From: an uncultured Bacilli bacterium
Lineage (GTDB): Bacteria > Bacillota_I > Bacilli_A > RF39 > UBA660
Reading direction: 5' to 3'
Length of the DNA: 64,000 bases
NCBI GenBank assembly: GCA_934122395.1
Contig: CAKOWQ010000003.1
Coordinates: 186,299-250,298, forward strand
Both the position numbers and the translations under genes were made by a program. Numbering within the stretch: position 1 is the stretch's first letter; every line of letters starts with the position of its first letter. This document shows positions 16,285 through 62,869 of the stretch, piece by piece. The notes beneath the pieces were generated by a model. The model did not search any database. It was not told the DNA's origin and saw only the letters and a list, made by a program, of their open reading frames with translations.

Positions 16285-16309
16285 GTGGTTGATTGTGGTG
16301 AAAAGTGGG
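16285..16309 (+). promoter_or_regulatory. MraZ operator: three GTGG boxes with exact 10-nt period just upstream of mraZ
   Basis: GTGG at 16285, 16295 and 16305 (GTGGttgattGTGGtgaaaaGTGGggga); matches the known tripartite 10-bp-spaced MraZ box architecture. Confidence 0.7.
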
Positions 16310-16316
16310 GGATTTT

Positions 16317-16760: not shown

Positions 16761-16762
16761 TT

Positions 16763-17686
16763 ATGCATGTTAGTGTTTTACTTGAAGAAGCAATCCAAGG
16801 TCTTAATTTGAAAGATGACGGTATCTACGTTGATTGTACATTAGGATATGCTGGACATTCCAGCGAAATTTTAAAGCGAGTAAGAAGGGGTTGTCTTTTC
16901 GCCTTTGACCAAGATAGTGATGCTATTAAGTATAGTAGGGAAAAGCTATCAAAGATAGGAGACAATTTTACTATTATATATAGTAACTTTGTTAATATTA
17001 AAGAAGAATTATTAAAAAGAGATGTCACTAAAGTAGATGGTATTTTATTTGATTTAGGTGTTTCATCAGTCCAATTAGATGAAGCAGATAGAGGCTTTAG
17101 TTATCATCAAGATGCACACTTAGATATGCGTATGGATAGAAATCAAACGTTATCTGCATATGGAGTTGTAAATAATTATGAAGAAACTAAATTAAGAGAT
17201 ATATTCTTTAAATATGGAGAAGAGAAATATTCTTCAAGCATTGCAAGAGCAATAGTAAAATATCGTGAAAACAAAAAAATAGAGACGACACTTGAATTAG
17301 TAGAAATAATTAAAAGTGCTATGCCTATGAAAGCCAAAAGAGATAAACATCCGGCTAGAAAAGTTTTCCAAGCAATAAGAATAGAAGTTAATCATGAGTT
17401 AGATATTTTGGATAAAGCAATTCGTGATTCACTTAGTCTATTAGATATAAATGGACGTCTTGCAATAATTACTTTCCATTCATTAGAAGATAGAATAGTA
17501 AAAAATATATTTAAAGAAGTTACACATATAGATGAAAGAGTAAAAGGACTGCCAAATATTCCGGAAGAATATTTAAGCAATTTTAAATTAGTAAATAACA
17601 AAGCAATAATTCCTAGTGATGCGGAACTTGATAATAATAATAGATCAAGAAGTGCTAAATTAAGAATAATAGAAAGAATAAGATAG
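16763..17686 (+). CDS. rsmH: 16S rRNA m4C1402 methyltransferase RsmH
   Basis: HVSVLLEE..YVDCTLGYAGHS..DLGVSSVQLD..RGFSY family motifs; position after mraZ. Confidence 0.95.
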   Translation: MHVSVLLEEAIQGLNLKDDGIYVDCTLGYAGHSSEILKRVRRGCLFAFDQDSDAIKYSREKLSKIGDNFTIIYSNFVNIKEELLKRDVTKVDGILFDLGVSSVQLDEADRGFSYHQDAHLDMRMDRNQTLSAYGVVNNYEETKLRDIFFKYGEEKYSSSIARAIVKYRENKKIETTLELVEIIKSAMPMKAKRDKHPARKVFQAIRIEVNHELDILDKAIRDSLSLLDINGRLAIITFHSLEDRIVKNIFKEVTHIDERVKGLPNIPEEYLSNFKLVNNKAIIPSDAELDNNNRSRSAKLRIIERIR

Positions 17687-17696
17687 GGTTGATAAC

Positions 17697-18008
17697 ATGA
17701 AAAAGAAAAAACGTATGAAAAAGATAGTTAGAATGGGAAAGTTTGAGAGACTTTTATATACTTTTACTATTGTCTTATTAGTAATTACACCTTTTGCTGT
17801 CGTTTTTTCTCAAGCAACTTTATCTAAGGTAAACTTCGATGTTGAAAAAGTAAAAAAGCAAATATCAACTCAAGAGAAGAAGAATGAATCTCTTGCTATG
17901 AAAGTTAATGAACTTGCTTCTCTTGATAATATTAAGACTGTTGCTGAGCAACAGGGATTGAGTTATAATAATAATAATATTAAATCAATTATTTCAAGTG
18001 ATGAATGA
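17697..18008 (+). CDS. ftsL: Cell division protein FtsL-like (single TM plus coiled coil)
   Basis: 103 aa, basic N-terminus, one TM, coiled-coil tail; canonical position between rsmH and the PBP gene. Confidence 0.75.
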   Translation: MKKKKRMKKIVRMGKFERLLYTFTIVLLVITPFAVVFSQATLSKVNFDVEKVKKQISTQEKKNESLAMKVNELASLDNIKTVAEQQGLSYNNNNIKSIISSDE

Positions 18009-18021
18009 TAGGTGAAAAAGT

Positions 18022-20163
18022 ATGAAGAAAAAGCTAGAAAATAATAATGTTAGAATAAGTTTATTCTTAGTTGTTATTGCTCTAGTTTTTTTTGTTTTGA
18101 TTATTGCAAGAACTGCTCAACTTGCTTTATCTAAGAAGATAGATGGAATTGATATACAGGAATTTGCTAGTAGTAGAACTACTAAAAATGAAATATTAAA
18201 GGGTAAAAGAGGTACTATTTATGATAAGAATGGAACTGCTCTTGCACAAAATGTTTCATCTTATACTTTAATAGCTTATTTATCATCATCTAGAACTACT
18301 GATATAAAACATCCTAAACATGTAGTTGATAAAGAATATACAGCAGAAATGTTGTCAACAGTACTTGATTTAAGTAAAGAACAATTATTACAGTATTTAT
18401 CGAAAGAAAATGTATATCAGACAGAGTTTGGTAGTAAGGGAAGAGGGTTAACTGAACTTACTAAAGATGCTATTCTAGCTTTAGGACTTCCTGGAATTGA
18501 TTTTATTGAAACACAAAAAAGATATTATCCTTATGGAGATTTTGCATCATATACTTTAGGTTATGCTAAAACTGAAATAACTGAAAAAGATGATGGAAGT
18601 AGTTCTGAAGCAATAGTAGGTGAAATGGGAATTGAAAAACAATTTGATGAAGAGTTAAAAGGAGAAGATGGTTATACTTTCTATCAAAAAGATAGAGCTG
18701 GTTATAAAATTGCTGGCACTAAAGAAGTAACGGTACCGGCTAAAGATGGTAAAGATGTATATTTAACGATCGATTCAAATATTCAATTGTTCCTGGAACG
18801 TGCTCTTGATAAGGCTGATTGGTATAATTTTGAATGGTCTACTATTCTAGTGGCAGATGCTAAGTCTGGTGCTATTCTAGCTTCATCTTCTAATCCGTCA
18901 TTTGATCCTAATTTAAGAAATATGACTAATTATATTAACTATAATACTAGTTATGCATATGAGCCAGGATCTACTATGAAAATATTCTCTTATATGGCAA
19001 CTATGGAAAATGGAAACTATAATGGTAGTGATACATATAAATCAGGTGTTTATGTAACAAAAGATGGTACTGAAATAGGCGATCATAATCGTAATGGTTG
19101 GGGAGAAATAACTTTTGATTATGGATTTACTTTATCTAGTAACGTAGCAGTTATTAACCTTATTAATAGATACATTAGTGGTGCAATATTAAAAACATAT
19201 TATAATAAACTTGGTTTTGGTTCTAAAACAGGAATAGAGCTACCAAATGAAGTTACAGGAAAAGTAGCTTTTAAATATGAAACGGAAATACTTAATGCTG
19301 GTTTTGGACAAGGGATTACTACAACTCCTATTCAAAATATTAAGGCACTTACTTCACTTACTAATAATGGAGTATTAATGCAACCATATATTGTTGATAA
19401 GATAGTTGATCCTGATACTAATGAAGTAGTATATCAAGGTGGTAAAAAAGAGCTTGATAAAGTTGCTAGTAAAGAGACTGTTGCTAAAATGAAAAATTTA
19501 ATGCGAACCGTTATAGAAGATCCTATGGGAACAGGTCATGGTTATTATATGGAAGGTTATGATTTAATAGCTAAAACAGGTACTGCACAGGTTGCTGATA
19601 AAAGTGGTTATGGTGGTAGTGTTATTCGTGGCTTTGCAGGACTATATCCAGGAAATGACCCTAGTATCATAATATATTATGCATCTAAAGATAATGGTTT
19701 AGGTGGTTTATATGCTATGAGAACAGTTATCAAGGATCTAATTGCAAATGTCAGTAAATATTTAGAACTAGATGGTAATAGTGTAGATAATACTACAGCT
19801 TTAAAGAATTATACAATGCCTTCTTTTATAAATAAAAATACTGTTGATGTTACAAATAAATTAACTAGTGAAGGATTAACTTATATAGTTATTGGTAATG
19901 GTAATAAAATAGTTAAACAATATCCAAGTGTTGATACTAAAGTATCTGAATTAGATAAAATTTTCTTAGTTACTAATGATAGTAATCTTGTTATGCCAAA
20001 TGTAATAGGTTATAGTATAAATGATGCTAAAGTTTTATTAAATCTATTAGGTATTAATCATTCTATAACTGGAAACGGTTATATAACTTCTCAAAGTATT
20101 GCATCAGGTGTAATTATAAAAAAAGAAGATATAGTCTCTTTAGAAGCTAATCCTAAGTTTTAA
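18022..20163 (+). CDS. pbpB: Class B penicillin-binding protein (division transpeptidase, PBP2B/FtsI-type) with two C-terminal PASTA domains
   Basis: GSTMK (SxxK), LSSN (SxN), KTGTA (KTG); dimerisation domain; tandem PASTA-like C-terminus. Confidence 0.9.
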   Translation: MKKKLENNNVRISLFLVVIALVFFVLIIARTAQLALSKKIDGIDIQEFASSRTTKNEILKGKRGTIYDKNGTALAQNVSSYTLIAYLSSSRTTDIKHPKHVVDKEYTAEMLSTVLDLSKEQLLQYLSKENVYQTEFGSKGRGLTELTKDAILALGLPGIDFIETQKRYYPYGDFASYTLGYAKTEITEKDDGSSSEAIVGEMGIEKQFDEELKGEDGYTFYQKDRAGYKIAGTKEVTVPAKDGKDVYLTIDSNIQLFLERALDKADWYNFEWSTILVADAKSGAILASSSNPSFDPNLRNMTNYINYNTSYAYEPGSTMKIFSYMATMENGNYNGSDTYKSGVYVTKDGTEIGDHNRNGWGEITFDYGFTLSSNVAVINLINRYISGAILKTYYNKLGFGSKTGIELPNEVTGKVAFKYETEILNAGFGQGITTTPIQNIKALTSLTNNGVLMQPYIVDKIVDPDTNEVVYQGGKKELDKVASKETVAKMKNLMRTVIEDPMGTGHGYYMEGYDLIAKTGTAQVADKSGYGGSVIRGFAGLYPGNDPSIIIYYASKDNGLGGLYAMRTVIKDLIANVSKYLELDGNSVDNTTALKNYTMPSFINKNTVDVTNKLTSEGLTYIVIGNGNKIVKQYPSVDTKVSELDKIFLVTNDSNLVMPNVIGYSINDAKVLLNLLGINHSITGNGYITSQSIASGVIIKKEDIVSLEANPKF

Positions 20164-20174
20164 TTAATAAAATT

Positions 20175-20204
20175 ATACAAGACTTTAAGTCTTGTATTTT
20201 TATT
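20175..20204 (+). terminator. Intrinsic terminator ending the mraZ-PBP unit
   Basis: ATACAAGACTT/AAGTCTTGTAT hairpin followed by a T-run. Confidence 0.8.
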
Positions 20205-20246
20205 TTGTATTTTGTGATACAATATACCTATCAATTGAGGTGAATT

Positions 20247-21119
20247 ATGAAAATAGCAGTTGTTCCTAGTAGTAATAAAGAAATAGATAAATATACAAGT
20301 CCTTTAGTTAGTGCTATAATATTTGGACTAAAAGATTTTTCGGTTAATTATCCAGAATTAGGTCTAGAAGAAATAAAGAATTTTTCTCTTAAAAACAAAG
20401 ATATTGATATATTTGTAAGTATTAATAAAACTATTTTTAATGAAGACTTAGAAAGTGTTGAAAAGTATTTAATTGAATTAGATAAATTATCTATAAAAGG
20501 TGTTTTATTTTATGATTTAGGTATTTTAAATATTTATAAACGTCATAAATTTAAGTATTCTTTAGTTTGGCATCAAACTCATATGGTAACAAATTATAAT
20601 ACATGTAATTACTATTATAATGAAGGAGTTCAATATGGAGTGATTGCAGGAGAAATAACTAAGGATGAGATAATAGAAATAAAAAATAAAACTAAGATGA
20701 AGTTATTTGTTACTTTAATAGCTCGTCCTATTATGGCACATTCTAGAAGAAAACTGTTATCTAATTATTACAAGAGTATTGATAAGAATTATGATGGAGA
20801 GATTAAAACTATAAAAGAAGGCTTACATGATTATTTGATTAAAGAAGATAAGAATGGTACTTGTATATTAGAAGATAAAATAGTAAATGGTCTTACATAT
20901 ATAAACGAATTTAATGATAATAAAATAGAATATGGAATAATTAATGGCATGGAATTAGGAGACAAACTGCTATTAGAATTAATTCCACTAGTAAATGAAG
21001 TATTAAATAATAACGATAAAAAAAGTTTAGAAAAAATAATAAAGTTAATTGGTAATAATACTTTATTCTTTGATAAGAAAACGGTGTTTAAGGTGAAGAA
21101 AGATGAAAAAAAGAATTGA
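20247..21119 (+). CDS. Peptidase U32 family protein, YrrN/TrhP1-like
   Basis: 290-aa protein with no motif I could verify by eye; call rests on being paired with and overlapping the YrrO-like U32 gene downstream, as in B. subtilis yrrN-yrrO. Confidence 0.6.
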   Translation: MKIAVVPSSNKEIDKYTSPLVSAIIFGLKDFSVNYPELGLEEIKNFSLKNKDIDIFVSINKTIFNEDLESVEKYLIELDKLSIKGVLFYDLGILNIYKRHKFKYSLVWHQTHMVTNYNTCNYYYNEGVQYGVIAGEITKDEIIEIKNKTKMKLFVTLIARPIMAHSRRKLLSNYYKSIDKNYDGEIKTIKEGLHDYLIKEDKNGTCILEDKIVNGLTYINEFNDNKIEYGIINGMELGDKLLLELIPLVNEVLNNNDKKSLEKIIKLIGNNTLFFDKKTVFKVKKDEKKN

Positions 21120-22287
21120 GTTATTATCTCCAGCAGGAGATTTAGAAAGATTAAAAGTAACTTTATTATATGGAGCTGATGCTGTATATATCGGGGGACA
21201 ACATTATAGCCTAAGAGCTAATGCTAGTAATTTTTCGATTGATGAGATAAAAGAAGCATGTGATTTTGCACACTCTTTAGGTAAAAAAGTTTATTTAACT
21301 CTTAATATTGTTTTTCATAACGAAGATATTAAGGGCGTAGAAGATTATATTAAAGATGTAGCGAATGCTGGAATAGATGCCTTTATTGTAAGTGATCCTT
21401 TTATTATTAAATATATTAAAACAAATTTTCCTAGTGTTGAGGTTCATTTAAGTACACAAAATTCTACTTCTAATATAGAAGCAGTTAAATATTTTAAGGA
21501 TCAGGGAATAGATAGAGTAGTTTTAGCTCGTGAGTTATCTTTATGTGAAATAGAAAAAATAATTTTAGCAACAGGTATGGATATAGAAGTATTTATACAT
21601 GGCGCTATGTGTACTTTTTATAGTGGTAGATGTACTTTATCTAATTATTTGACTAATAGGGACTCTAATAGAGGAGGATGTAGTCAGGTATGTCGTTTTG
21701 CATTTAATATTGAAAATGAAGATAAAAAGTTTACTATGGCTACTAAAGATTTAAATGCAGTAAGATATATTAGTAAATTAATTGATATTGGAGTAGCATC
21801 TCTTAAAGTTGAAGGTAGAATGCGTTCGTTATATTATTTAGCTACTGTAATTGGATGTTATAGAAAAACTATTGATAGTTATTATGATGGCGTTTTAACT
21901 AACGAAGAATTAAATTATCAAGAACTCATTTTATCAAGAGTTGCTAATAGAGAAACTTCAGCACATTATTTGTACCATTTAGCAGATGATACTGATCAGT
22001 ATTACACTGGAAGACAAGAAATATCTAATCAAGATTTTTTAGGATTAGTATTGGATTATGATAAGAAAACTAAAATAGTAACTTTAACTGAACGAAATTA
22101 TTTTAGTAAAGGAGATTTGGTTCAATTATTTACTCCTAGTGGTAGTACATATTCTTTTGTGATTGATAAAATGTATAATGAAAAAATGGAAGAAATAGAT
22201 GTTGCAAGGCATCCTGAAGAAATTATTAAAATAGTAGTAGATGGTGATGACATTTGTCCTTATTCAATGTTAAGAAAGAAGGTTTAA
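21103..22287 (+). CDS. Peptidase U32 family protein, YrrO/TrhP2-like (prephenate-dependent tRNA ho5U34 pathway family)
   Basis: N-terminal IELLSPAGDLERLKVTLLYGADAVYIGG; Cys cluster CTFYSGRCTLS..GGCSQVC typical of U32. Confidence 0.8.
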   Translation: MKKRIELLSPAGDLERLKVTLLYGADAVYIGGQHYSLRANASNFSIDEIKEACDFAHSLGKKVYLTLNIVFHNEDIKGVEDYIKDVANAGIDAFIVSDPFIIKYIKTNFPSVEVHLSTQNSTSNIEAVKYFKDQGIDRVVLARELSLCEIEKIILATGMDIEVFIHGAMCTFYSGRCTLSNYLTNRDSNRGGCSQVCRFAFNIENEDKKFTMATKDLNAVRYISKLIDIGVASLKVEGRMRSLYYLATVIGCYRKTIDSYYDGVLTNEELNYQELILSRVANRETSAHYLYHLADDTDQYYTGRQEISNQDFLGLVLDYDKKTKIVTLTERNYFSKGDLVQLFTPSGSTYSFVIDKMYNEKMEEIDVARHPEEIIKIVVDGDDICPYSMLRKKV

Positions 22288-22289
22288 TA

Positions 22290-23423
22290 ATGGATTTAGA
22301 AAAAATTAAAAAGGAAATATTAAAAAGAGAAGATAATTTATCTAGTTATGCTACTCATAGTAGTAGTGCTATTAGACTAAAAGATGAAGAAGTAGATATT
22401 AGACCAGCTTTTTTTAGAGATGTCGATAGAATTATTCATAATATTTCTTATACAAGATATATTGATAAAACCCAAGTCTTTTCGTTCCGCGATAATGATC
22501 ACATATCTCATCGCGTTGTCCATGTACAATTAGTTAGTAAGATTGCCAGAACCATTGGTAGATGTTTAGGATTAAATGAAGACTTGATTGAAGCAATAGC
22601 ATTAGGTCATGATATTGGACATGTTCCTATCGGACATATTGGAGAATCTATCCTAAATGAGATTTCTAAAAAAGAGTTAAATGAATATTTTATGCATAAT
22701 GTTCAAAGTGTAAGAACATATATGAACATTGATAATAATGGAAATGGTGAGAATCTAACAGTTCAAGTGTTAGATGGAATATTATGTCATAATGGGGAAG
22801 TATTGAATAATATTTATGAACCTATTTTTACTAAAACTAAAGAGGATTTTTTAAAAGAATATAATGATTGTTATACAGTATTAGAAACATCTAAAAAAAT
22901 ACGTCCAATGACTCTTGAGGGGTGTGTTGTACGTATATCTGATGTTATCGCTTATATAGGAAGAGATGTTGAAGATGCTATTCAATTAGGAGTAATAAAT
23001 AGAAGTGATATTCCAGAAGATGTTACTAAAGTTTTAGGTAATAATAATAGAGAAATAGTTAATAATATTATTTTAGATATAATAGAAAACAGTTATGGTA
23101 AGCCTTATATTAAATTAAGTGAATCTATTTATGAAGCTATCGATAAATTAAAAGATTTTAACTATAAGAATATATATGCTAAAGCCAATGATGAGACTAC
23201 TTTAAAGTACTATAAAAAAGCTTTTAATATTTTATATAGTAAATATTTAAGTGATTTAGAATATACTAAAAAAGATAGTGAAATTTATACTTTATTTATT
23301 GATAATATGAGTGGTGATTATATTAGTAACACTTCAAATAAAAGAATAGTTATAGACTTTATTGCAGGTATGACAGATAATTTCTTTATTAAATGTTATG
23401 AAAATATAGAAAAGGCGTGTTAA
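22290..23423 (+). CDS. HD-domain dNTP triphosphohydrolase-like protein (dGTPase family)
   Basis: HRVVHVQLVS...ALGHDIGHVPIGHIGE; start set at ATG 22290 (AAGAAGG SD). Confidence 0.8.
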   Translation: MDLEKIKKEILKREDNLSSYATHSSSAIRLKDEEVDIRPAFFRDVDRIIHNISYTRYIDKTQVFSFRDNDHISHRVVHVQLVSKIARTIGRCLGLNEDLIEAIALGHDIGHVPIGHIGESILNEISKKELNEYFMHNVQSVRTYMNIDNNGNGENLTVQVLDGILCHNGEVLNNIYEPIFTKTKEDFLKEYNDCYTVLETSKKIRPMTLEGCVVRISDVIAYIGRDVEDAIQLGVINRSDIPEDVTKVLGNNNREIVNNIILDIIENSYGKPYIKLSESIYEAIDKLKDFNYKNIYAKANDETTLKYYKKAFNILYSKYLSDLEYTKKDSEIYTLFIDNMSGDYISNTSNKRIVIDFIAGMTDNFFIKCYENIEKAC

Positions 23424-23433
23424 CAAAAAGAAC

Positions 23434-23462
23434 TTGACAAATATCAAAGCTTGTAGTATCAT
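23434..23462 (+). promoter_or_regulatory. greA promoter
   Basis: TTGACA, 17-nt spacer, TATCAT. Confidence 0.5.
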
Positions 23463-23490
23463 TTTAAAGTATATAAAAAGAGGTGATATT

Positions 23491-23961
23491 ATGAGCGAAA
23501 AGAAAATATATTTGACTGAAGAAGGTTACCGCGATTTAAAGAAAGAATTAGATGAATTGATAAATGTTAAACGACCTGAAAATATTCAAGCTATAAAAGA
23601 AGCAAGAGCATTAGGTGATTTATCTGAAAATGCTGACTATGATGCAGCTAAAAACGATCAAGCTGAAATTGAAGGACGTATTAAAAGAATAGAAAAAATG
23701 TTAGAAAACGTTGAAATAATTGAGAAAAAGAGTAGCGATGTAGTAGCACTTGGTTCAACAGTAAGCATTAAATATTGTGATGATGAAGATGAAACTGATG
23801 AATATGAAATAGTTGGAAGTCAAGAAGCAGATCCATTTGTAAGTAAGATTTCTAATGAGAGCCCTATTGCTAAAGCTATCATGAATAAAAAAGTAGGGGA
23901 CGTTGTTGAGGTTGAAAGCCCAAATGGCGTTTATAAAATAGAAATTACTGCTATAAAATAG
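23491..23961 (+). CDS. greA: Transcription elongation factor GreA
   Basis: LTEEGYRDLKKELDEL...ARALGDLSENADYDAAK; start at ATG 23491 after AGAGGTGA. Confidence 0.95.
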   Translation: MSEKKIYLTEEGYRDLKKELDELINVKRPENIQAIKEARALGDLSENADYDAAKNDQAEIEGRIKRIEKMLENVEIIEKKSSDVVALGSTVSIKYCDDEDETDEYEIVGSQEADPFVSKISNESPIAKAIMNKKVGDVVEVESPNGVYKIEITAIK

Positions 23962-23968
23962 TGTAAAC

Positions 23969-23996
23969 AAAAGTGTCATTTTGACACTTTTTTATT
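23969..23996 (+). terminator. Intrinsic terminator
   Basis: AAAGTGTCA-TTT-TGACACTTT followed by a T-run. Confidence 0.8.
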
Positions 23997-24056
23997 TTTG
24001 ATATCTTTACATTTTGCCTATATATGTTATGCTTTATATATAATAAGGAGGATGAA

Positions 24057-24719
24057 ATGAAGAAGTTTAAATTAATTAGTATTGTATTAGCATTTATAGT
24101 ATTTGTTACTATGCCAGTTGTATATGCTCATGAAGTTGAATTAAGTAGTGATATTATTACTATTCCTACTACTAGCGAGTCTGCAATATGGAAAGGTACT
24201 AAAGTTCAAATTGCCAGTAGTTATGGAGAATATAATTTTTATTATCAATATGTAGTAATAACGGACGAACAATATAAAAATTATATAGGAATAAAAGAAG
24301 AACAAAAGAAATATGAAGCGGAGCATAAACCAGTAGCAGGTGCAACTAAAGAAGAACAAAATGCATATGAAGAAGAAATGAAAAACTATGAAAAATCAAA
24401 AGAAGGTATTTTACCATCATATGATGATAAAAAATGGATTGCATCTAGTGATAATACTGTACCAATAGATGAAGAAAAAAATACAGAACCTGCTAAATAT
24501 GTTTTATGGGTAAAAGTTGAAAGTAAAACAGGAACAGATAAAAATGCTAAATACAACGATTTAGTAGTTGTATATAACCCTACTACTAAGAGTGATGATA
24601 ATAGTAAAAGTGAAGAGGAAGCTAATCCAAGTACTAGTGATAATATAATACTATTTGCAGCAGGTGCAGCATTAATTGCTGGTGTTATGGTTGTAAGTTT
24701 TAAAAAATCAAGAGCTTAA
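24057..24719 (+). CDS. Secreted Lys/Glu-rich surface protein with C-terminal NPSTSDN + TM + basic tail
   Basis: Signal MKKFKLISIVLAFIVFVTMPVVYA; C-terminus EEANPSTSDNIILFAAGAALIAGVMVVSFKKSRA; start at ATG 24057 after AAGGAGG. Confidence 0.7.
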   Translation: MKKFKLISIVLAFIVFVTMPVVYAHEVELSSDIITIPTTSESAIWKGTKVQIASSYGEYNFYYQYVVITDEQYKNYIGIKEEQKKYEAEHKPVAGATKEEQNAYEEEMKNYEKSKEGILPSYDDKKWIASSDNTVPIDEEKNTEPAKYVLWVKVESKTGTDKNAKYNDLVVVYNPTTKSDDNSKSEEEANPSTSDNIILFAAGAALIAGVMVVSFKKSRA

Positions 24720-25534: not shown

Positions 25535-25757
25535 TTTTATACCTAGATTCTAATAGAAATATAGAAATTGTTTTAACCATTTTAAAAAACTTTTCATTAG
25601 GCCTCCTTTATCCTTATAGAAAGTTAACAAACAAGTAACTTTCTATTTTTAATTTTACCATAGAAAAGGTAAAAGTCAACATTTTGTTAACTTCGGCGTT
25701 GCTTATTGCAAGTAATCGAATAAAGTGTTATTATATAGGAACAAATCGGGGGATTTT

Positions 25758-26927
25758 ATGAGTGAAGTAACTTTAAAAGATAAGAAAGAAGTTCTTGTTA
25801 TGGCAAGTAAAGAAGAAAGGAAAGCTAAAATTTGTAAGGCTCTTATGGAAGCTAATTTTAGTCTTGTGTTTGATATCGCAAATATTCATAATTATTATGA
25901 TCAAGATGAATTAATTTCGGTAGGAACTCAAGGGCTTGTGAAAGCTGCTAATAGTTATGATACTACTAGAAATACACTGTTTAGGAATTATGCTTCAAAA
26001 TGCATTAGTAATGAGATTAATAATTTTTTAAAAAAGGCAAGTATAAGAAATGAAAATGTAAGTTTAGAAACACCAGTACAAACTAGTTATGGTAGTAAAA
26101 GATTAAAAGATATTATAATAGATGATGATCCATTTCGTAAAATATTCGATGAAGATGTTCATGCTTCTATTAGAAGTGCAATTACTTTATTACCATCACC
26201 TGAACGTGAAATAGTACAAATGCGATTTGGTTTTATTGATAATAAAATATTTAGTTTAAGAGATATTGCTAGTAAACTTCATTTATCATATGGTTATGTA
26301 AGTGAACTCTTAAATAATGGCGTAGAACTTGCTGCTATAATACTATCTAAAAAAGGAATAATAGATTTGAATAAGGACGAATATACTCTAGTTCACGATA
26401 AAAAAGGAAAAGTAAGAGCAATAAAAAAAGATAAGTTGTCAATATATAAGTATTTTAGCGATTATAGTGAAGATGAAATTAATTATGCATTATCAACTTT
26501 GACTCAAAGTGAAAGAGGATTGTTACCAAGTGCTTGTGGTGAAGCAATTCCTAATGAAATGTCTGAATTTATATATATTAGTCGAAAATTAAAAAAACGA
26601 CTTGATGCTTTTAGAGAAAATAAAGGTGCTGGTGCTGATAGGTTAACTACTGATGACTATAAAGAAATAGTTGATATATTAAATGGTGATAATATGCCAA
26701 AAAGAATTCAGGCGTTGGAAGAAAGCGAAAAAATTGTGGCATTATTAAGTTTGGGGTATGTAAATGGGAAGTATTTTTCAAGTGAATTTGTTTCAGATAC
26801 TTTAGGTATTCCACAAGAACGCGTTTTGGAAATAATTGATAAAACTGAAGAATTTGCTAGACAAGAGAGAAAAGAAGAAATGGAAAAATATCTAACCGGA
26901 ATAAAAACCAAAAGCAAAAGACCTTGA
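25758..26927 (+). CDS. Sigma-70-family factor with about 190-aa C-terminal extension carrying extra region-4-like HTH modules
   Basis: Region 2-like FSLVFDIANIH..DELISVGTQGLVKAANSYD..FRNYASKCISNEINNFL; region 4-like LPSPEREIVQMRFG..SLRDIASKLHLSYGYVSELL; then LTQSERGLL and EKIVALLSLGYVNGKYFSSEFVSDTLGIPQERVLEII. Confidence 0.65.
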   Translation: MSEVTLKDKKEVLVMASKEERKAKICKALMEANFSLVFDIANIHNYYDQDELISVGTQGLVKAANSYDTTRNTLFRNYASKCISNEINNFLKKASIRNENVSLETPVQTSYGSKRLKDIIIDDDPFRKIFDEDVHASIRSAITLLPSPEREIVQMRFGFIDNKIFSLRDIASKLHLSYGYVSELLNNGVELAAIILSKKGIIDLNKDEYTLVHDKKGKVRAIKKDKLSIYKYFSDYSEDEINYALSTLTQSERGLLPSACGEAIPNEMSEFIYISRKLKKRLDAFRENKGAGADRLTTDDYKEIVDILNGDNMPKRIQALEESEKIVALLSLGYVNGKYFSSEFVSDTLGIPQERVLEIIDKTEEFARQERKEEMEKYLTGIKTKSKRP

Positions 26928-38442: not shown

Positions 38443-40458
38443 ATGGTAGACTTTTTTGCGGCGGCTCAAAGAGTTATTTCAATGATTATGACTGGTACTG
38501 AGTTAGTGTTTATTGTATGGCTTACTTCTGGTGGCGTTATTTTTGTACTAAGAGGAATAAGCTTTTGGATAGATTGTACTATAGTAAAGTGCATTGGTGC
38601 AATTTATAGTTACTTTATGACATTATTAAATGGTACTATGTTTAACAAAACACTGGTTAATGCAGTTATGAAAAATGTATATATATTTATTGGAGTGTTT
38701 ATATTCTTTAGAGTAGCCATGCTTCTTATTAAATATATAATGAATCCGGAAATGGTTGCCGATCAGAAAGCCGGTGCTAATGCATTAATTAAAAGAGTAA
38801 TAATTGGTATGATGGGAATAATTTTTATACCAACTATATTTGATTATGGTTTAAAACTTCAATCTGCTGTAATTGAGGATCAACTGATTCAACAGTTATT
38901 TATTCCAAGTGATATGATAAAAGAGGTTGAAAAACAAACAACAAATGGAGGAAATGGAATAGGTACCACAATTTTTTCTGGTTTTATTAATCCTAGCTCC
39001 AAGGCGCCGGATAAAATTAAGAATGAATACAAGAAGGCCTTGGAACAGAAGGATTTATCATCTATAAATTTTAATAGCGGGGGATTCCTGGGAATAGGAT
39101 ACTCGAGTTATGATTATAGTTATTTTTACTTAATTTCGACCTTTGTTCTTGGATATGTATTGTATCTTATGCTTAAATATTGTTTAGATATAGTTGTCCG
39201 TTTCTTTAAGCTTTTTCTATTTCAATTAATTGCGCCAATTGCTATGGTGGAATATATGGCGAATGGTGCAGACGATGGCGTTTTCAAAAATTGGAAAAAT
39301 GCTGTTCTTGGTAGCTATTTGATGCTATTTACTAGAATTATGTCTATTTGGTTTGTCTTGTTTGTTATGACTTTGTTAAACGGCAATTTTCCTAATTATA
39401 GCAATGGGTCATTATTAGCTGAAAATGATTACTTATTAAAAGCCTTAATAATGATAGGATTGCTAGCATTTATGATGGATCTGCCTAAAATCATTGGTAG
39501 TATATTTGGCCTTGATCTAGAACAGGATTCATCTGCTACAGGTTTATTAAAATCATTTGGTGGTATGATCAAAGGTGTCGGATTAGGCGCTGTTTCTTTA
39601 GGCGGCGCAGCAGCAGCAGGTGGATTTAAAAGAATTCAGAATGCCGGTGGTGCTGCTAGTAAAATGCATGCCTTAAATCAACAAAAGAAGAGTGATATGG
39701 CAGCAGGAACATTTGATGCTGCTAAATATAATCAAAATAAGGCTGCTATAATGAAAGATTTCAAGACTGGAAAATCAAATGCTATGAGAGCTACAGGTGT
39801 TGGAATGCTTAAATCATTAGCTGGTAATAGTAAGATTGTTGGCGCTGCTTATAGTGGTGCTACTGGTGTTACAGAAGATATTAAAAAGAAAGAGGGTAAA
39901 GCTGAAGCTAAGGCACAAGCTGAGGAAGAAAGAGCTTATAGACAGCATCAAATAGAAGTTACTGATGAAATTAATACTAATACACATGTAATAGTTGGTC
40001 AGCAAGCTGTTGCTAATGTTAAACTTGATAATTTAGTAGACAATTCTGAACAAACATTGACTCAAACCGTTAATATTGATCATAAATTAGGCAATGTTAG
40101 TAATAATGTTGAAGCGATTGCTAAAAATACTGAAACTACAGCTCAACAAACAGTTAACATTGATCAGAAACTAGGAACAGTTAGTGGCAACGTTGAAGCA
40201 ATTGCTCAAAATACTGAGACTGCGGCTCAACATACTGTTAATGTTGATCAAAAATTAGGAAAAATTAGTGGTAAGATTGATACGATTGCAGATAATACAG
40301 AAATTTCTGCTGAACAATCAATTGATATAAATCAAAAAGTTGGTAACATTAGTGGCGATGTAAGTAATATTTCTGATAATACAGAATTAATAGGGGATGC
40401 TACTTTAAACATTGAACATAGCACTAGAGATGATGATAAAGAATCATTAAATAGTTAA
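38443..40458 (+). CDS. Polytopic membrane protein (TrbL/VirB6-like organisation) with Gly/Ala-rich linker and C-terminal 28-aa tandem repeats
   Basis: At least 6 TM helices in the first about 370 aa; GLGAVSLGGAAAAGGFKRIQNAGGAAS; repeats QTVNIDxKLGxVSGNVEAIAxNTETxAQ; SD GAGGTGA 42 nt after the upstream gene. Confidence 0.5.
   Translation: MVDFFAAAQRVISMIMTGTELVFIVWLTSGGVIFVLRGISFWIDCTIVKCIGAIYSYFMTLLNGTMFNKTLVNAVMKNVYIFIGVFIFFRVAMLLIKYIMNPEMVADQKAGANALIKRVIIGMMGIIFIPTIFDYGLKLQSAVIEDQLIQQLFIPSDMIKEVEKQTTNGGNGIGTTIFSGFINPSSKAPDKIKNEYKKALEQKDLSSINFNSGGFLGIGYSSYDYSYFYLISTFVLGYVLYLMLKYCLDIVVRFFKLFLFQLIAPIAMVEYMANGADDGVFKNWKNAVLGSYLMLFTRIMSIWFVLFVMTLLNGNFPNYSNGSLLAENDYLLKALIMIGLLAFMMDLPKIIGSIFGLDLEQDSSATGLLKSFGGMIKGVGLGAVSLGGAAAAGGFKRIQNAGGAASKMHALNQQKKSDMAAGTFDAAKYNQNKAAIMKDFKTGKSNAMRATGVGMLKSLAGNSKIVGAAYSGATGVTEDIKKKEGKAEAKAQAEEERAYRQHQIEVTDEINTNTHVIVGQQAVANVKLDNLVDNSEQTLTQTVNIDHKLGNVSNNVEAIAKNTETTAQQTVNIDQKLGTVSGNVEAIAQNTETAAQHTVNVDQKLGKISGKIDTIADNTEISAEQSIDINQKVGNISGDVSNISDNTELIGDATLNIEHSTRDDDKESLNS
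40063..40422 (+). repeat. In-frame tandem repeat, 84-nt unit x 4.3
   Basis: Units start at 40063, 40147, 40231, 40315 (partial at 40399); each begins CAA/CAT-ACx-GTT-AAx-ATT-GAT. Confidence 0.9.
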
Positions 40459-43978: not shown

Positions 43979-43999
43979 TATATCTATGCCTTTTTTTCA
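43979..43999. terminator. Bidirectional hairpin between convergent mutM and the 43984 gene
   Basis: GCATAGATA-TTA-TATCTATGC, followed by T-run on the plus strand. Confidence 0.7.
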
Positions 44000-44490
44000 T
44001 ATAATCCTTCTATACTATATTCTTTTATTTTGCTAGATCTTCTAACTTTACTACTTTGATAGAAGTCTTGCATACTTGTTAGAGTTTTATTTATATTATC
44101 ATAACTTGTAGTGGATAGTTTTTTAACTACCAAGGTATGTGGGTCAGTATCCATTGTATTAAGATACAATTGAAGTAAAAATACTCTAGTTTGGTAACTA
44201 TCAAAAATACTATTTTGGGCTTTAGCAAAATCTAGACTAGCTACATTAGTACTTAATACTCTATTATCTACATTTAGTAAATAAAACTGTTTTAGTAAAA
44301 AGAAATAAATATTATTTTCGCTTATTAGGTTATTAGCAAAAAGAAGCTTAAATGCACCTTCATTTTTTAAAGCAAGTAATAATCTTTCTTCCCCATGAAG
44401 TTCTACTAAATTTCTGCATTTATCTTTGAAGCGACGTTCTTGTTCTGTTTCAACTTCCCACTTTATTATATCATTATTGAAATAAGACAT
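43984..44490 (-). CDS. Hypothetical protein (168 aa)
   Basis: Start at ATG 44490 after AAGGTGG; own promoter TTGCTT-17-TACAAT upstream; no recognisable motif. Confidence 0.5.
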   Translation of the reverse strand: MSYFNNDIIKWEVETEQERRFKDKCRNLVELHGEERLLLALKNEGAFKLLFANNLISENNIYFFLLKQFYLLNVDNRVLSTNVASLDFAKAQNSIFDSYQTRVFLLQLYLNTMDTDPHTLVVKKLSTTSYDNINKTLTSMQDFYQSSKVRRSSKIKEYSIEGLYEKKA

Positions 44491-44551
44491 TCCTATTACC
44501 ACCTTTGCGAAGTGTTATTGTATCACAAAAGTATATATAAAGCAAAAAAAA

Positions 44552-45913
44552 TTAGTTATTTTCTCTAACTAATTTTTTAAAAGCATTACCTTTTTCTTCA
44601 AAATTTTTAAAATATTCATAGCTGGCAGCAGCTGGTGACATTAAGCATATCATGCCTTTCTTAGTAACTAGTTTTGCCTTATCAACAGCTTCTTCCAACG
44701 TATCAACTAAGTAAATATTTTTGTTTGCTTTGGCATTGATTAAGATATTGGCAATTTTATGACCGGTACTAGGCATACATATTAAATTCTCAATGTCTGC
44801 TGTTTTTAAGTAATCAATAAATTCATTATAATTTATTCCACGATCAAGTCCCCCAAATATTAAAGTATTTACTTTTTTTAGTGCTTTAATTCCATTAACA
44901 GTTGCATCAGGTATTGTTGCTATAGCATCATTATAGTAAGTTACATCATTAAATGTTCCAACTAATTCTAATCGGTGTTCTAAAGGGGTAAAGTTGTTAA
45001 TAGCAGTTGTTGTTTTTGATAAGTCTAAATTTAATATTTCACTTAGGGTAAAGCACATCATAATATTGATTAAATTATGATCCCCAATAAGGTTTCTTTC
45101 TTCTTTTACATCATATATCTTTTTACTATTAACATAGATGAATTTATGATCACAATATGTTTCTATATCTTTAGTATCAAAATTAACCCTAAAAATATTG
45201 GAACATGGGTTTAATTTTTTTATTCGTGTATCTAATGCTTCACATCCATTATAGTATATCAATACGTCATCGCTAGTTTGATATCTTGTAATATTAAGTT
45301 TAGCGTGATAATAATCTTCTAATCCGTTAGTGTGATCTAAGTGATCTTCATAAAAATTTGTAATAAGAGAAATATGAGGAGAATTAGTTATAAACTCTAA
45401 TTGATGTGATGACATTTCTACTACTAGTAATGTATCACTTTCAATTTTATCAATATAATCGAAAATAGGCGTTCCTATATTTCCAAGTAAAAAACATTTC
45501 TTATTATTAGCTTTTAATATTTCATAAATTAATGATGAGGTAGTACTTTTTCCTTTAGTACCAGTAATACCTATAATATTTTTTCTGAAGTATTTTATCA
45601 ATATTTCAAGTTCAGATGAGATTTTATTTTTAATTTTTGATGTATCAATATCTCTAAAAGATATTCCTGGTGCTTTCATAATCAAGTCATATTCGTCTAG
45701 ATTGTCTAGATAATTTTCACCAGTTATAATAGTTGCATTCTTATCATCTTTTAATAATGATTCGTCTTTTATTTTGTCGTTTTTATCTTTTATTGTTAGA
45801 TTAATGTTTCCCAAATATTTTCTTATAAAAGAATAGGTTGATTTTCCCTCTTTACCAAATCCTAAAATAACTATTTTTTTATCTTTAAATTCATTAATTA
45901 TATCATTAATCAT
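44552..45913 (-). CDS. murD: UDP-N-acetylmuramoyl-L-alanine--glutamate ligase (MurD family), located outside the dcw cluster
   Basis: Rossmann VILGFGKEGKS, P-loop ITGTKGKSTTS, Mur ligase middle and C-terminal domains; ATG abuts the upstream stop. Confidence 0.85.
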   Translation of the reverse strand: MINDIINEFKDKKIVILGFGKEGKSTYSFIRKYLGNINLTIKDKNDKIKDESLLKDDKNATIITGENYLDNLDEYDLIMKAPGISFRDIDTSKIKNKISSELEILIKYFRKNIIGITGTKGKSTTSSLIYEILKANNKKCFLLGNIGTPIFDYIDKIESDTLLVVEMSSHQLEFITNSPHISLITNFYEDHLDHTNGLEDYYHAKLNITRYQTSDDVLIYYNGCEALDTRIKKLNPCSNIFRVNFDTKDIETYCDHKFIYVNSKKIYDVKEERNLIGDHNLINIMMCFTLSEILNLDLSKTTTAINNFTPLEHRLELVGTFNDVTYYNDAIATIPDATVNGIKALKKVNTLIFGGLDRGINYNEFIDYLKTADIENLICMPSTGHKIANILINAKANKNIYLVDTLEEAVDKAKLVTKKGMICLMSPAAASYEYFKNFEEKGNAFKKLVRENN

Positions 45914-47278
45914 TTAAATCATCTCCTTGTGTAATAGGTCAATATACTTAGTAGGAATATTATTTTCTATATTAAAGTGTTCTTCTAAATTATTGGTATA
46001 GAGTTTATAGTTATCTTTATAAAACTTTAATAAATAAGGAAGCTTTTCGCTTTTTTCTTCTAATCTAAGAATTGTCTTACTACAAGCAAATCTTACCTCA
46101 TCATATGTTCCTACACATTCAAATGGTTTATTTTTAGCATCTCCTAAGAGTTCTTTAAATGTTTCTAACATATCTTCTTTGTCTAATAAATTAGTTGAAA
46201 ATATATTTTGTAACGTATTAGTATCAATATATGGGCTTAGTATAATATATATAAATAAACACTTAGAACAATTACAACACCAGTTAGTTCCCGTTTTTTT
46301 ACTACTTAAATTACAACTTCTAAAAATGTTATAGTATTTAGGATATTTACTAAATATTTTTGCTATTTCAATTTCTAAAAGAGGTCTTAACAAACTAAAG
46401 TATTCTGTTTCTTTATTGAAATATTTATTGGTATAAATTCTAAAATCATTTTCAAATTCTAAGCTTTTAGAGTATTGATGGTTAACATTTGTTCCTTTGA
46501 CATTTCCTTCATTACTACTGTCTTCATTTGATACAATAATATATTTTTTGTTATTAAGATAAGCCATTATATATGCTGCAAAAGCTAATTGTGATGATAA
46601 TGGAACATGGCCATTTAAAAATCCTTCTTTATTTAGTTTAAGTAGGGTACTATCAATTTCAGATGTCAATATAACGATATCATCATCAGTATATCCTGCT
46701 TGATATATGGAATTATATGATGGCATGTTTTTTGGATAAATATTTCTTTCAAAAAGGAAACATAAATTATCATCTTTTTCTTCTTTTAAAATCTCCATTG
46801 AGACAATAGAATCTTTTCCACCACCAACTAGTATTAAATTGCCGCTAGGATTTAATTTAGGTATATTATGTTCTTTTTTATTACTCTTAACTATAAAGTT
46901 AGTAAACTCATCATAAGATAGGTCAATTTCATTACGATAAAAATATTCGCTTAATCCATTAAAGATCAATTTTTTAAAGAAAGATATTTGATCTTCATTT
47001 ATGTAATCTGCCTCGATAATAATTTCCTTTGGACAACTTAATTTGAAGTAATTAATAATATTTACTAATCCAAAATTAAAGAATAAATAATTTAAATAGT
47101 CTTCATCAATATCTTTGGTCTTAATATGTTCTTTATCAATATAAATACTAGGAGTAAAAGTATATTCACCAAGCATATATGTATATTTTACTTGGATGTT
47201 GGTATCATTATTTATAACTTCGTAACTTTTATATATTAACTTATTATATTTTTCTCTTAGTTCTTTGTAATTTGTCAT
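45914..47278 (-). CDS. PP-loop ATP-pyrophosphatase-like protein, candidate MurL-type partner of MurD
   Basis: LILVGGGKDSIVS (SGGxDS-like PP-loop), C-terminal Cys cluster WCCNCSKC; translationally coupled to murD; SD AGGAGG. Confidence 0.4.
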   Translation of the reverse strand: MTNYKELREKYNKLIYKSYEVINNDTNIQVKYTYMLGEYTFTPSIYIDKEHIKTKDIDEDYLNYLFFNFGLVNIINYFKLSCPKEIIIEADYINEDQISFFKKLIFNGLSEYFYRNEIDLSYDEFTNFIVKSNKKEHNIPKLNPSGNLILVGGGKDSIVSMEILKEEKDDNLCFLFERNIYPKNMPSYNSIYQAGYTDDDIVILTSEIDSTLLKLNKEGFLNGHVPLSSQLAFAAYIMAYLNNKKYIIVSNEDSSNEGNVKGTNVNHQYSKSLEFENDFRIYTNKYFNKETEYFSLLRPLLEIEIAKIFSKYPKYYNIFRSCNLSSKKTGTNWCCNCSKCLFIYIILSPYIDTNTLQNIFSTNLLDKEDMLETFKELLGDAKNKPFECVGTYDEVRFACSKTILRLEEKSEKLPYLLKFYKDNYKLYTNNLEEHFNIENNIPTKYIDLLHKEMI

Positions 47279-47410
47279 AATTCCTCCTAATAAAAGGTAT
47301 TCATTTATATATCTAATTATATCACGAATGTAAACTTATATTAACTGAAATGACAAATAGTTGACATATTATTTAAAATGATAGTAAAATAATCTTATGA
47401 TAAGGGGTCG

Positions 47411-61723: not shown

Positions 61724-62869
61724 ATGAAGATACTTAGATATATTGATAAGTGGTTATTATTAATTACTACTATTTTATTTGTAATAGGACTAGTTATGGT
61801 ATTTTCTGCATCTAACGTAGCTTCCTTTATGAGATATAAGGCGAGTCCTTATCATTTTATAATAAGACAATCTATCTTTTTGCTAGTGGGAATTATTATC
61901 TCGTTAATTGCTATTAGATTTTCTACTAAAGTATATGGGTTTGTTTCTTGGCCGGGACTTATTGCTATTACAATAGTTTTAGCTTTAGTTTTAGCTTATG
62001 GTAAAATAGCTGGTGGTGCTTCTTCTTGGATTCAATTAGGTCCTTTTAGATTCCAACCTAGTGAATTTGCTAAAGTCATTATGATAGCATGGATGGCAAG
62101 TTTTTATGATATAAATAAAAATAGTTTAAATAGATATTCAACAGCTTTGTTTCCATTACTTATATGTGGTATTATTGTGGTTTTATTAATGCTAGAACCG
62201 GACTTGGGTACTGCTATAATATTTGCGGGAATTGTAACTTTTATATTTATGATTGTACCGATAGATTTAAAAATAAAAGTGCGAACTGTTTTGATTGTAT
62301 TAGTAATTGGTCTTTTAGGCGTTGCTATTTTAATTGGTAATGGTAAGAATTTATTTTTCCATCACCAAATTCAAAGGTTAGATTTTTCAAACCCTTGTAG
62401 TGAATCTAAATTCTATAAAGAAGGTAACCAGGTTTGTAATGGGTATATTGCTATAAACAATGGAGGACTTTTTGGAAAAGGACTTGGTAATAGTACTCAA
62501 AAATATTTGTATTTACCTGATTCACACACAGACTTCATTTTCCCAATTGTTGTTGAAGAATTAGGATTGTTATTTGGAGCCTTTGTAATTTTATTATATA
62601 TATTCTTGTTAGCTCGTATTTTTATAATAGCTCATAATAGTACTAATAATAGAAATGCTATCATGTGTTATGGTGTTGCTTTTTATATTTTCTTACATGT
62701 TGTAGTTAACTTAATGGGTGTTCTTGGAATGATGCCAATGACAGGAGTACCGCTTCCATTCTTAAGTTATGGAGGAAGTTTTACTATATGTTTGATTGTA
62801 GCTCTTACTATGGTTCAAAGAGTAGCAATAGAAAATAATACAAAAAATCTTTCAAAAAATAAAGGATAA
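61724..62869 (+). CDS. ftsW: SEDS-family peptidoglycan polymerase (FtsW/RodA/SpoVE)
   Basis: 10-TM protein with FQPSEFAK, PDSHTDFIF, GVPLPFLSYGGS. Confidence 0.9.
   Translation: MKILRYIDKWLLLITTILFVIGLVMVFSASNVASFMRYKASPYHFIIRQSIFLLVGIIISLIAIRFSTKVYGFVSWPGLIAITIVLALVLAYGKIAGGASSWIQLGPFRFQPSEFAKVIMIAWMASFYDINKNSLNRYSTALFPLLICGIIVVLLMLEPDLGTAIIFAGIVTFIFMIVPIDLKIKVRTVLIVLVIGLLGVAILIGNGKNLFFHHQIQRLDFSNPCSESKFYKEGNQVCNGYIAINNGGLFGKGLGNSTQKYLYLPDSHTDFIFPIVVEELGLLFGAFVILLYIFLLARIFIIAHNSTNNRNAIMCYGVAFYIFLHVVVNLMGVLGMMPMTGVPLPFLSYGGSFTICLIVALTMVQRVAIENNTKNLSKNKG

Follow-up and report, generated by a model that had tools for sequence, protein, structure and literature searches.

We analysed a window of 64,000 nucleotides from an uncultured Bacilli bacterium (GTDB lineage Bacillota_I; Bacilli_A; RF39; UBA660; contig CAKOWQ010000003.1, positions 186,299 to 250,298) and find that two abutting genes on its minus strand, encoding a MurL-like protein of 454 amino acids (aa) and a MurD-type ligase of 453 aa, most likely form a MurD2/MurL two-gene operon, an alternative route for placing D-glutamate (D-Glu) in the stem peptide of peptidoglycan. 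The initial annotation of this DNA had suggested that the pair might be a Bacillota version of the MurL/MurD2 route of Xanthomonas oryzae. Sequence and structure now support that suggestion: the upstream protein is homologous to MurL, the ligase carries MurD2-type residues, and a hidden Markov model (HMM) of MurL-linked MurDs fits it better than a canonical model by 298 bits. The homology, the modelled fold, the conserved residues, the gene linkage and the residue signatures are direct observations, and the enzymology that we attach to them below is conditional on them.

The pathway itself is known. Its reference pair is MurL XOO_1319 and MurD2 XOO_1320 of X. oryzae, and orthologues from Micromonospora and Salinispora have also been assayed (Feng et al. 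2017, reviewed in PMC8788868 and PMC5808125). Its presence in the lineage studied here, and its breadth, are not described in the accessible literature. The genes and their junction lie as follows (window positions).

45914-47278, minus strand: 454-aa MurL-like open reading frame (ORF), assigned from the ORF list and family matches
44552-45913, minus strand: 453-aa MurD-type ligase ORF, assigned from TIGR01087 and Pfam domains
45911-45916, minus strand: TAA/ATG junction with translational coupling, the murL stop codon TAA (45916-45914) touching the murD ATG (45913-45911)
45923-45928, minus strand: AAGGAG, Shine-Dalgarno sequence for murD, within the 3' end of murL and 8 nt upstream

The abutment of stop and start codons noted in the initial annotation is thus borne out to the nucleotide.

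Homology of the upstream protein to MurL

The relationship of the 454-aa protein to MurL, which had been beyond verification by eye, is confirmed by a family model, by Pfam MurL domains, by direct comparison with a Xanthomonas MurL and by its invariant residues. It matches the NCBIfam model NF041275 with E = 8.7e-64 and 215.6 bits, its residues 71-405 aligning with positions 66-396 of the 447 in the profile. This model, MurL_Xanthmoales, describes the UDP-N-acetyl-alpha-D-muramoyl-L-alanyl-L-glutamate epimerase and has an equivalog cutoff of 700 bits; since it is a Xanthomonadales-only model, the low score marks the protein as something other than a Xanthomonadales-type equivalog rather than as lying outside the MurL family. 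The two Pfam domains of that family, PF26299 (MurL_N) and PF26298 (MurL_epimerase_C), are precomputed on proteins 100% (P0001) and 98% (P0002) identical to ours, and both are also on record for the murL gene of the close relatives L001-L007.

BLASTP aligns the 454-aa protein with the MurL of Xanthomonas sacchari over 336 residues at 29% identity (E = 8e-50). The X. sacchari sequence comes from a tblastn search of PLSDB, where a 508-kb replicon recorded as a plasmid carries a PGAP-annotated murL beside a 'murD'. In an alignment of 36 diverse MurL homologues 31 columns are invariant, and X. sacchari MurL is identical at 29 of them; the residues that it has in common with the window protein include GGKDS, N222-G-H224, N266-H-Q-x-x-K271, S321-C322-N, W333-C334-x2-C337-x-K-C340 and C388 in FECVG.

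A local Pfam scan returned no match to the 454-aa protein. The same Pfam copy also misses the MurL family in eight MurL-domain control proteins, which include six MurL-MurD fusions and one fusion of a MurC/E-type ligase to MurL, and since it appears to be without MurL models we do not count the null result against homology. The initial annotation had allowed that the protein might instead belong to another defined PP-loop family. The searches speak otherwise, with significant MurL-family matches and no QueC family model matching the protein in either Pfam or NCBIfam.

Predicted fold and motifs of MurL

An AlphaFold2 model built on the homologue alignment reached a mean predicted local distance difference test score of 95.2 and a predicted template modelling score of 0.94. 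Compared by Foldseek with the Protein Data Bank (PDB), it finds QueC (2pg3) at the top with probability 1.0, followed by QatC, Cap9, NMN/NAD synthetase, TtuA and LarE. At the level of fold the protein belongs to the PP-loop superfamily, with an SGGxDS-type PP-loop on a Rossmann-like alpha/beta core. By sequence, a PDB search with the same protein found nothing at E <= 10, and the PDB copy that we searched holds no solved MurL. Four motifs stand out.

46808-46825, minus strand: PP-loop GGGKDS, residues 152-157, the predicted ATP pyrophosphate-binding loop for substrate adenylation
46466-46483, minus strand: NHQYSK, residues 266-271, candidate substrate-binding or acid-base residues
46259-46315, minus strand: Cys cluster C322-x11-C334-x2-C337-x2-C340, which holds CCNCSKC, a predicted QueC-type structural Zn site
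46109-46123, minus strand: FECVG with the invariant Cys388, a candidate catalytic thiol for removing and returning the alpha-proton

Both GGGKDS and CCNCSKC (residues 334-340) had been picked out in the initial annotation, and both stand at these positions. Within the 36 homologues G153-S157 are invariant and G152 is conserved in at least 90%, and all six residues of the loop are identical in X. sacchari MurL. In NHQYSK every residue but S270 is invariant, and S270 is conserved in at least 90%, the X. sacchari protein reading NHQWSK. The four cysteines C322, C334, C337 and C340, as well as C388, are invariant throughout the alignment and kept in X. sacchari MurL. When the MurL profile is compared with E. 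coli QueC by hhalign, the match is weak (probability 6%, E = 0.006); it lays GGGKDS over SGGQDS and lines the four MurL cysteines up with C-x8-C-x2-C-x2-C of QueC, and by this analogy the cluster probably holds a structural zinc, as in QueC.

Published biochemistry of MurL describes the use of one ATP, the formation of AMP and a one-way conversion from L to D; its authors proposed adenylation of the alpha-carboxylate by a protein that 'lacks known conserved domains' (PMC8788868, PMC5808125). The QueC-like PP-loop core of our model gives that proposal a structural basis. This predicted fold for MurL is derived in the present analysis and is new with respect to the published description.

QueC and the QueC-like Cap9 and QatC are PP-loop ATP pyrophosphatases with a Cys4 zinc site, and the window MurL resembles them in its SGGxDS-type loop and, within the weak hhalign alignment, in the colinear C...CxxCxxC. 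Carboxylate adenylation would be a further likeness, known for QueC from the literature and suggested for MurL by the published formation of AMP. Unlike QueC, MurL has at its N-terminus an additional domain, Pfam MurL_N, of about 140 residues and at its C-terminus a helical region, and the weak hhalign score and the absence of a QueC family model match likewise set the two apart. PP-loop enzymes that adenylate carboxylates, such as QueC, NAD synthetase and asparagine synthetase, mostly hand the adenylate to a nitrogen nucleophile; the MurL adenylate, as the literature on the epimerase implies, would instead labilise the alpha-proton and then be hydrolysed, with no transfer to ammonia.

Family and specificity residues of the coupled ligase

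By family the downstream protein is a MurD, as first annotated: it matches TIGR01087 (murD) over its full length with 334 bits against a cutoff of 212, and it contains the three Mur-ligase Pfam domains MurD-like_N, Mur_ligase_M and Mur_ligase_C. TIGR01087 does not separate MurD2 from MurD, as the Xanthomonas MurD2 beside murL is also named MurD by PGAP. The residues that serve ATP, Mg and the carbamylated lysine (K115, N138, E157, H183 and K198 in E. coli numbering) are all intact. Three segments bear on the choice of glutamate isomer.

44915-44932, minus strand: NDAIAT(I) where canonical MurDs read NDSK[AGS]T(N), with Ile331 at the position of E. coli Lys319 and Ile for Asn322
45341-45349, minus strand: EDH, with Asp190 aligned to E. 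coli Asp182 and to Glu197 of X. oryzae MurD2
44837-44854, minus strand: GGLDRG, with Arg358 at E. coli position 348, which is also Arg358 in X. oryzae MurD2

Position by position, in the E. coli numbering that we use throughout for the ligase, the two proteins compare as follows.

Position 182: E. coli Asp, window MurD Asp
Position 318: E. coli Ser, window MurD Ala
Position 319: E. coli Lys, window MurD Ile
Position 322: E. coli Asn, window MurD Ile
Position 348: E. coli Lys, window MurD Arg
Position 414: E. coli Ala, window MurD Ala
Position 416: E. coli Leu, window MurD Tyr

In X. oryzae MurD2, Glu197, Arg358, Pro433 and Phe435 correspond to Asp182, Lys348, Ala414 and Leu416 of E. coli; the E197D and R358K substitutions altered its stereospecificity and the double mutant became a D-Glu ligase, whereas Pro433 and Phe435 were found by mutagenesis not to be determinants (PMC8788868). 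From the other side, K319T in E. coli MurD and K330T in Streptococcus mutans MurD led to acceptance of L-Glu (PMC8788868).

To place the window ligase among natural variants, we assembled 109 linked MurDs, defined as adjacent to or fused with MurL, and 17 canonical MurDs from about nine phyla (E. coli, S. agalactiae, T. maritima, 13 from chromosomes that PLSDB lists as plasmids, and the paralogue of locus L027 described below). None of the linked MurDs has Lys at position 319, where Ile occurs in 99, Leu in 9 and Ala in 1. Arg stands at position 348 without exception (110 of 110 sequences), an aromatic residue, Tyr or Phe, fills position 416, and hardly any linked MurD retains Asn at 322. At position 182 Glu is found in 94, and the window protein and its Bacilli relatives are among the 14 with Asp. 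X. sacchari MurD2 has Ile319 in the motif NDSISTT, together with Glu182, Arg348, Pro414 and Phe416. The motif D-S-K-[AGS]-T-N is present in 16 of the 17 canonical proteins, and its Lys319 and Asn322 are absent from the window MurD, which has D-A-I-A-T-I instead. Arg348 taken alone is not discriminating, since canonical Gram-positive MurDs carry Arg too, and of the Pro/aromatic pair of MurD2 at positions 414 and 416 the window protein, with Ala and Tyr, keeps the aromatic and not the proline. The initial annotation had named D-Glu specificity residues in the ligase, together with a canonical murI, as evidence that would speak against an L-Glu route; on that question Ile319, Arg348 and the aromatic residue at 416 are MurD2-like, and Asp182 is not. 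We propose Ile/Leu319 as a candidate marker of MurL-linked MurDs and of Xanthomonas MurD2, derived here from the aligned sequences with no published family definition behind it.

The single canonical protein lacking the motif is a murD product outside any dcw context, encoded at 274518-275894 on the 504-kb secondary replicon pMM59_01 of Pusillibacter faecalis (L101); it has DSIASS (Ile319) with Lys348. No MurL homologue was found on pMM59_01, and the protein is ambiguous in the HMM comparison, at -25 bits.

That comparison used HMMs built from the linked and the canonical group with the test sequences held out. The window MurD scores 623.6 bits with the linked model and 326.1 bits with the canonical one, a difference of +298 bits, and held-out canonical MurDs fall at -119 to -212 bits on the same scale. 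Pairwise scores run in the same direction, with 237-393 bits against the MurL-linked MurDs of Saccharibacteria and Bacteroidales and 175 bits against the canonical MurD paralogue of the Bacilli locus L027. In a neighbour-joining (NJ) tree the window MurD is nested among the linked MurDs (58% bootstrap with Xanthomonas excluded), apart from the canonical Bacilli MurD.

Linkage, distribution and fusions

A pattern scan over one genome per GTDB species yielded at least 590 stretches confirmed as relatives; the locus counts that follow refer to the best 80 of these (L008-L087). Represented among them are uncultured Bacilli, Mycoplasmatota/'Tenericutes', Erysipelotrichaceae, many Clostridia (Oscillospiraceae, Lachnospiraceae, Ruminococcus), Bacteroidales and Saccharibacteria. 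MurL is followed on the same strand by a MurD ORF, usually overlapping, in about 74 of the 80 loci, a tally that includes L017, where MurD lies 1.1 kb downstream, and the fusion in L074; two contigs end too early. The close relatives L001-L007 have this order too, with the genes abutting or overlapping, and in the closest ones (98% and 68% identity; human-gut and ruminant metagenomes and a 'Bacilli bacterium' metagenome-assembled genome) the pair keeps the same dnaG-rpoD-trmK ... fpg-polA context.

Four of the 80 loci (L030, L072, L079, L087) have MurL beside unrelated genes with no adjacent Mur ligase. MurL-like 'hypothetical proteins' with 28-29% identity to the window protein (E = 1e-44 to 2e-38) also occur on Pseudonocardia alni pPaSha1 (L090) and two other Pseudonocardia plasmids; in the one plasmid neighbourhood inspected, that of pPaSha1, the gene lies among ParA, WD40-repeat and HTH genes with no adjacent Mur ligase. 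These plasmid proteins may be a branch of the MurL family with another function.

A HMMER search through all 1.84 billion cluster representatives gave 2,513 clusters (50% identity) at E <= 1e-3. Among the best 150 representatives 33 are single-chain MurL-MurD fusions, mostly with MurL first and a few with MurD first, and one of them (P0169, 1247 aa) adds a C-terminal M20 peptidase domain. In another protein (P0185, 932 aa) a MurC/E-type ligase with a PF01225 N-terminal domain is fused to MurL. The widespread natural fusion of MurL to MurD, of which the 923-aa Bacteroidota protein P0133 is an example, is an observation of this analysis.

PGAP labels the MurL-MurD fusions of Patescibacteria and Bacteroidota (P0188, P0222, P0278 and others) 'D-glutamate ligase', and it names the X. 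sacchari ligase that overlaps an annotated murL (L089, 6136-7572) UDP-N-acetylmuramoyl-L-alanine--D-glutamate ligase. The naming of MurD2-type ligases by PGAP is a probable case of systematic mis-annotation of substrate chirality.

In the uncultured Bacilli bacterium MGBC103251 (L027, 3497-8686), a canonical MurD (DSKSTN; TIGR01087 392 bits) and a MurL-MurD2-type pair (DTIATI) share one 5-kb stretch, so both ligase types can coexist in one genome.

The published distribution of MurD2/MurL comprises Xanthomonadales, a few Alphaproteobacteria and Micromonosporaceae, described as 'relatively few genera' (PMC8788868, PMC5808125). Our literature search returned no report of the pair in Bacillota, Bacteroidota or Patescibacteria, and nothing on it beyond two reviews from the Dairi group. 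We consider it reasonably likely that MurD2/MurL is a major cross-phylum route to D-Glu, spanning gut and rumen Bacilli, Clostridia, Bacteroidales and Saccharibacteria/Patescibacteria in at least 590 species, often in fused form and with a ligase recognisable by the change of Lys319 to Ile or Leu.

Comparison with known systems

The window pair has the same gene order as the Xanthomonas pair, whose genes overlap by 20 nt in X. sacchari. MurL keeps the GGGKDS, NGH, NHQxSK, SCN, WCxxCxKC and FECVG motifs, and the ligase shares with Xanthomonas MurD2 the Ile at 319, the Arg at 348 and the aromatic residue at 416. Against these likenesses stand identities of 29% for MurL and about 23% for MurD, Asp rather than the Glu of X. 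oryzae MurD2 at 182 and Ala rather than its Pro at 414. The host, too, an uncultured gut Bacilli lineage with DNA of 27% GC, lies beyond the published distribution, and by overall sequence the window MurD falls in a large MurL-linked group that spans phyla and has Xanthomonas MurD2 only loosely attached to it.

With canonical MurD, fed by MurI or D-amino-acid aminotransferase, the window ligase has in common the three-domain architecture, the ATP and Mg residues and a TIGR01087 score above cutoff. It departs from it in reading DAIATI for DSK[AGS]TN, in lying outside the dcw cluster and coupled to MurL, and in scoring 298 bits lower on the canonical than on the linked HMM.

In Gram-positives the lipid II isoglutaminyl synthase MurT/GatD relies on a glutaminase partner to amidate the D-iGlu of lipid II. 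Like the window pair it is a two-protein system with a Mur-ligase-like subunit that is directed to the alpha-carboxylate of the same stem-peptide Glu, and MurT is among the weak PDB sequence matches of the window MurD (E ~3.5e-5). The window pair differs in having no glutaminase and consists of a full MurD orthologue and a PP-loop homologue of MurL.

Proposed mechanism

For this organism, both enzyme activities, the part that each residue plays and the dispensability of glutamate racemase are inferred from sequence. In the proposed route the ligase would convert the L-Ala carboxylate of UDP-MurNAc-L-Ala to an acyl phosphate, in ordinary Mur-ligase chemistry, and would add free L-glutamate in place of D-glutamate. 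MurL would then bind ATP by its QueC-like PP-loop and adenylate the alpha-carboxylate of the terminal Glu, giving an acyl-AMP and pyrophosphate. Adenylation would acidify the alpha-proton, which could be taken off and returned on the opposite face, inverting C-alpha, with Cys388, His224, His267 and Lys271 as candidate acid-base residues. The product would then be one that MurE can extend. We suggest that the translational coupling seen here, and the fusion seen elsewhere, would supply equal amounts of both activities, so that the dead-end L-Glu intermediate would be converted at once.

Alternative explanations

Several observations weigh against assigning the pair to the MurD2/MurL route. The NF041275 score of the 454-aa protein lies far under the equivalog cutoff, and its identity to Xanthomonas MurL is just 29%. 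On the ligase side, Asp182 is the residue of E. coli MurD, at the site where X. oryzae MurD2 has Glu197; since this Asp is retained and the E197D substitution altered the stereospecificity of that enzyme, the ligase could accept D-Glu or both isomers. Xanthomonas sacchari MurD2 itself leans toward the linked HMM by just +23 bits, the NJ clade of all linked MurDs including Xanthomonas has 31% bootstrap, deep branches being weak, and the signature common to the window MurD and Xanthomonas MurD2 could be convergent. The canonical MurD beside the pair in L027, finally, shows that D-Glu need not come by the MurL route alone. On a rival reading the ligase is still specific for D-Glu or accepts both isomers in a genome that has a racemase, and MurL is not the main source of D-Glu but serves as a back-up or for proofreading of a precursor bearing L-Glu; experimentally supported MurI in some Saccharibacteria, according to a reference cited in PMC11974145, would fit such an arrangement, as do the Asp at 182 and the coexistence in L027. 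We regard this as unlikely. The change of Lys319 to Ile as in Xanthomonas MurD2, with the loss of DSKxTN, speaks for L-Glu; the window MurD is typical of the MurL-linked family by its HMM margin; the close coupling and the many fusions favour an obligatory two-step pathway; and the 64-kb window has no murI and no second MurD.

Less probable still is that the adenylate formed by this MurL homologue is used otherwise, either to amidate the Glu alpha-carboxylate to iso-glutamine or to act on another amino acid added by a variant ligase. The thought arises from QueC being the closest fold match, given the usual fate of PP-loop adenylates at nitrogen nucleophiles, from the roughly 29% identity to the characterised MurL clades, and from the MurL-like proteins without an adjacent Mur ligase in L030, L072, L079, L087 and the Pseudonocardia plasmids. 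The 29 of 31 invariant residues that are identical in Xanthomonas MurL include all the candidate catalytic ones, though, the operon has no glutaminase or amidotransferase partner, and the partner ligase has the Ile319, Arg348 and aromatic-416 set of Xanthomonas MurD2. The idea that the upstream gene encodes an unrelated QueC-like or other PP-loop enzyme that neighbours an ordinary murD by coincidence can draw on the null result of the local Pfam copy and on the lack of a PDB sequence match. That Pfam copy misses eight MurL-domain proteins as well, no QueC family model matches, and significant matches come from NF041275, from the precomputed Pfam MurL domains and from BLASTP against Xanthomonas MurL, with linkage kept across phyla and fusions in many lineages. 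We therefore reject chance adjacency, whose probability we put close to nil, and retain the MurD2/MurL operon as the preferred reading of the pair.

Locus and genomic context

Upstream of the pair the following signals were located.

47283-47288, minus strand: AGGAGG, Shine-Dalgarno sequence for murL, from a sequence match
47316-47344, minus strand: TTAATA-17-TGnTATAAT, candidate promoter upstream of the pair, from a pattern match only

In the promoter scan the match upstream of murL was no better than shuffle expectation in 27%-GC DNA, so this promoter is a candidate only. A terminator scan of the locus found nothing beyond shuffle expectation in AT-rich DNA.

The description of murD as lying outside its usual cluster holds for the window. 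A partial dcw cluster of mraZ, rsmH, ftsL and a gene for a PBP2x/SpoVD-like transpeptidase lies at 16305-20163 and contains no mur ligase. The genes that come after it (16305-24719 for the whole segment) are two U32-peptidase/TrhP-like genes, a dGTPase gene and greA, and none of murE, mraY, murD, ftsW and murG follows there; the mur genes are dispersed in this host. Neither murI nor dat (both sought among ORFs of 230-300 aa) nor a second murD was found in the 64-kb window. A SEDS protein (FtsW/RodA) is encoded at 61724-62869, and since the window thus encodes a PBP2x-like protein, FtsL and a SEDS protein, the host builds peptidoglycan.

Downstream of murD, after 49 nt and on the same strand, lies an ORF of 168-172 aa (43984-44502, minus strand) with its own AGGTGG Shine-Dalgarno sequence. 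It has no family match, and the stretch that separates it from murD showed no terminator; since it is kept only in the closest relatives, we place it outside the widely conserved pair.

Elsewhere in the window, positions 38443-40458 encode a predicted membrane protein of 671 aa with C-terminal tandem repeats of about 22 residues (TVNIDQKLG.VSGNVEAIAQNTE). This region varies between near-identical contigs, with genes for 359 aa and 710 aa in L001 and the 671-aa gene in L002, and the repeat protein may be a variable surface or secretion protein. At 25725-26927 a sigma-70-family protein of 400 aa is encoded, whose first ~200 residues resemble SigE/SigK at scores below the cutoffs of those families and which carries a C-terminal extension of 200 residues.

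Implications

If the two enzymes act as predicted, this lineage of gut Bacilli, together with hundreds of uncultured Bacillota, Bacteroidota and Saccharibacteria, would build D-Glu into the wall without free D-glutamate. A missing murI would then be no gap in such genomes, and many of the 'D-glutamate ligases' in databases would be mis-annotated L-Glu ligases, for which the Ile319 signature offers a simple candidate marker of an L-Glu-type MurD. For the epimerase, the QueC-like PP-loop core, the Cys4 site and the invariant candidates Cys388, His224, His267 and Lys271 provide handles on its mechanism. Should the route be as widespread across phyla as the linked and fused genes suggest, free D-Glu and MurI may both be dispensable to these organisms, and their predicted sensitivity to inhibitors of glutamate racemase or of MurD would change. 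It would also undercut the published idea of MurD2/MurL inhibitors as narrow-spectrum agents against Xanthomonas and Stenotrophomonas, since gut commensals would be hit too.

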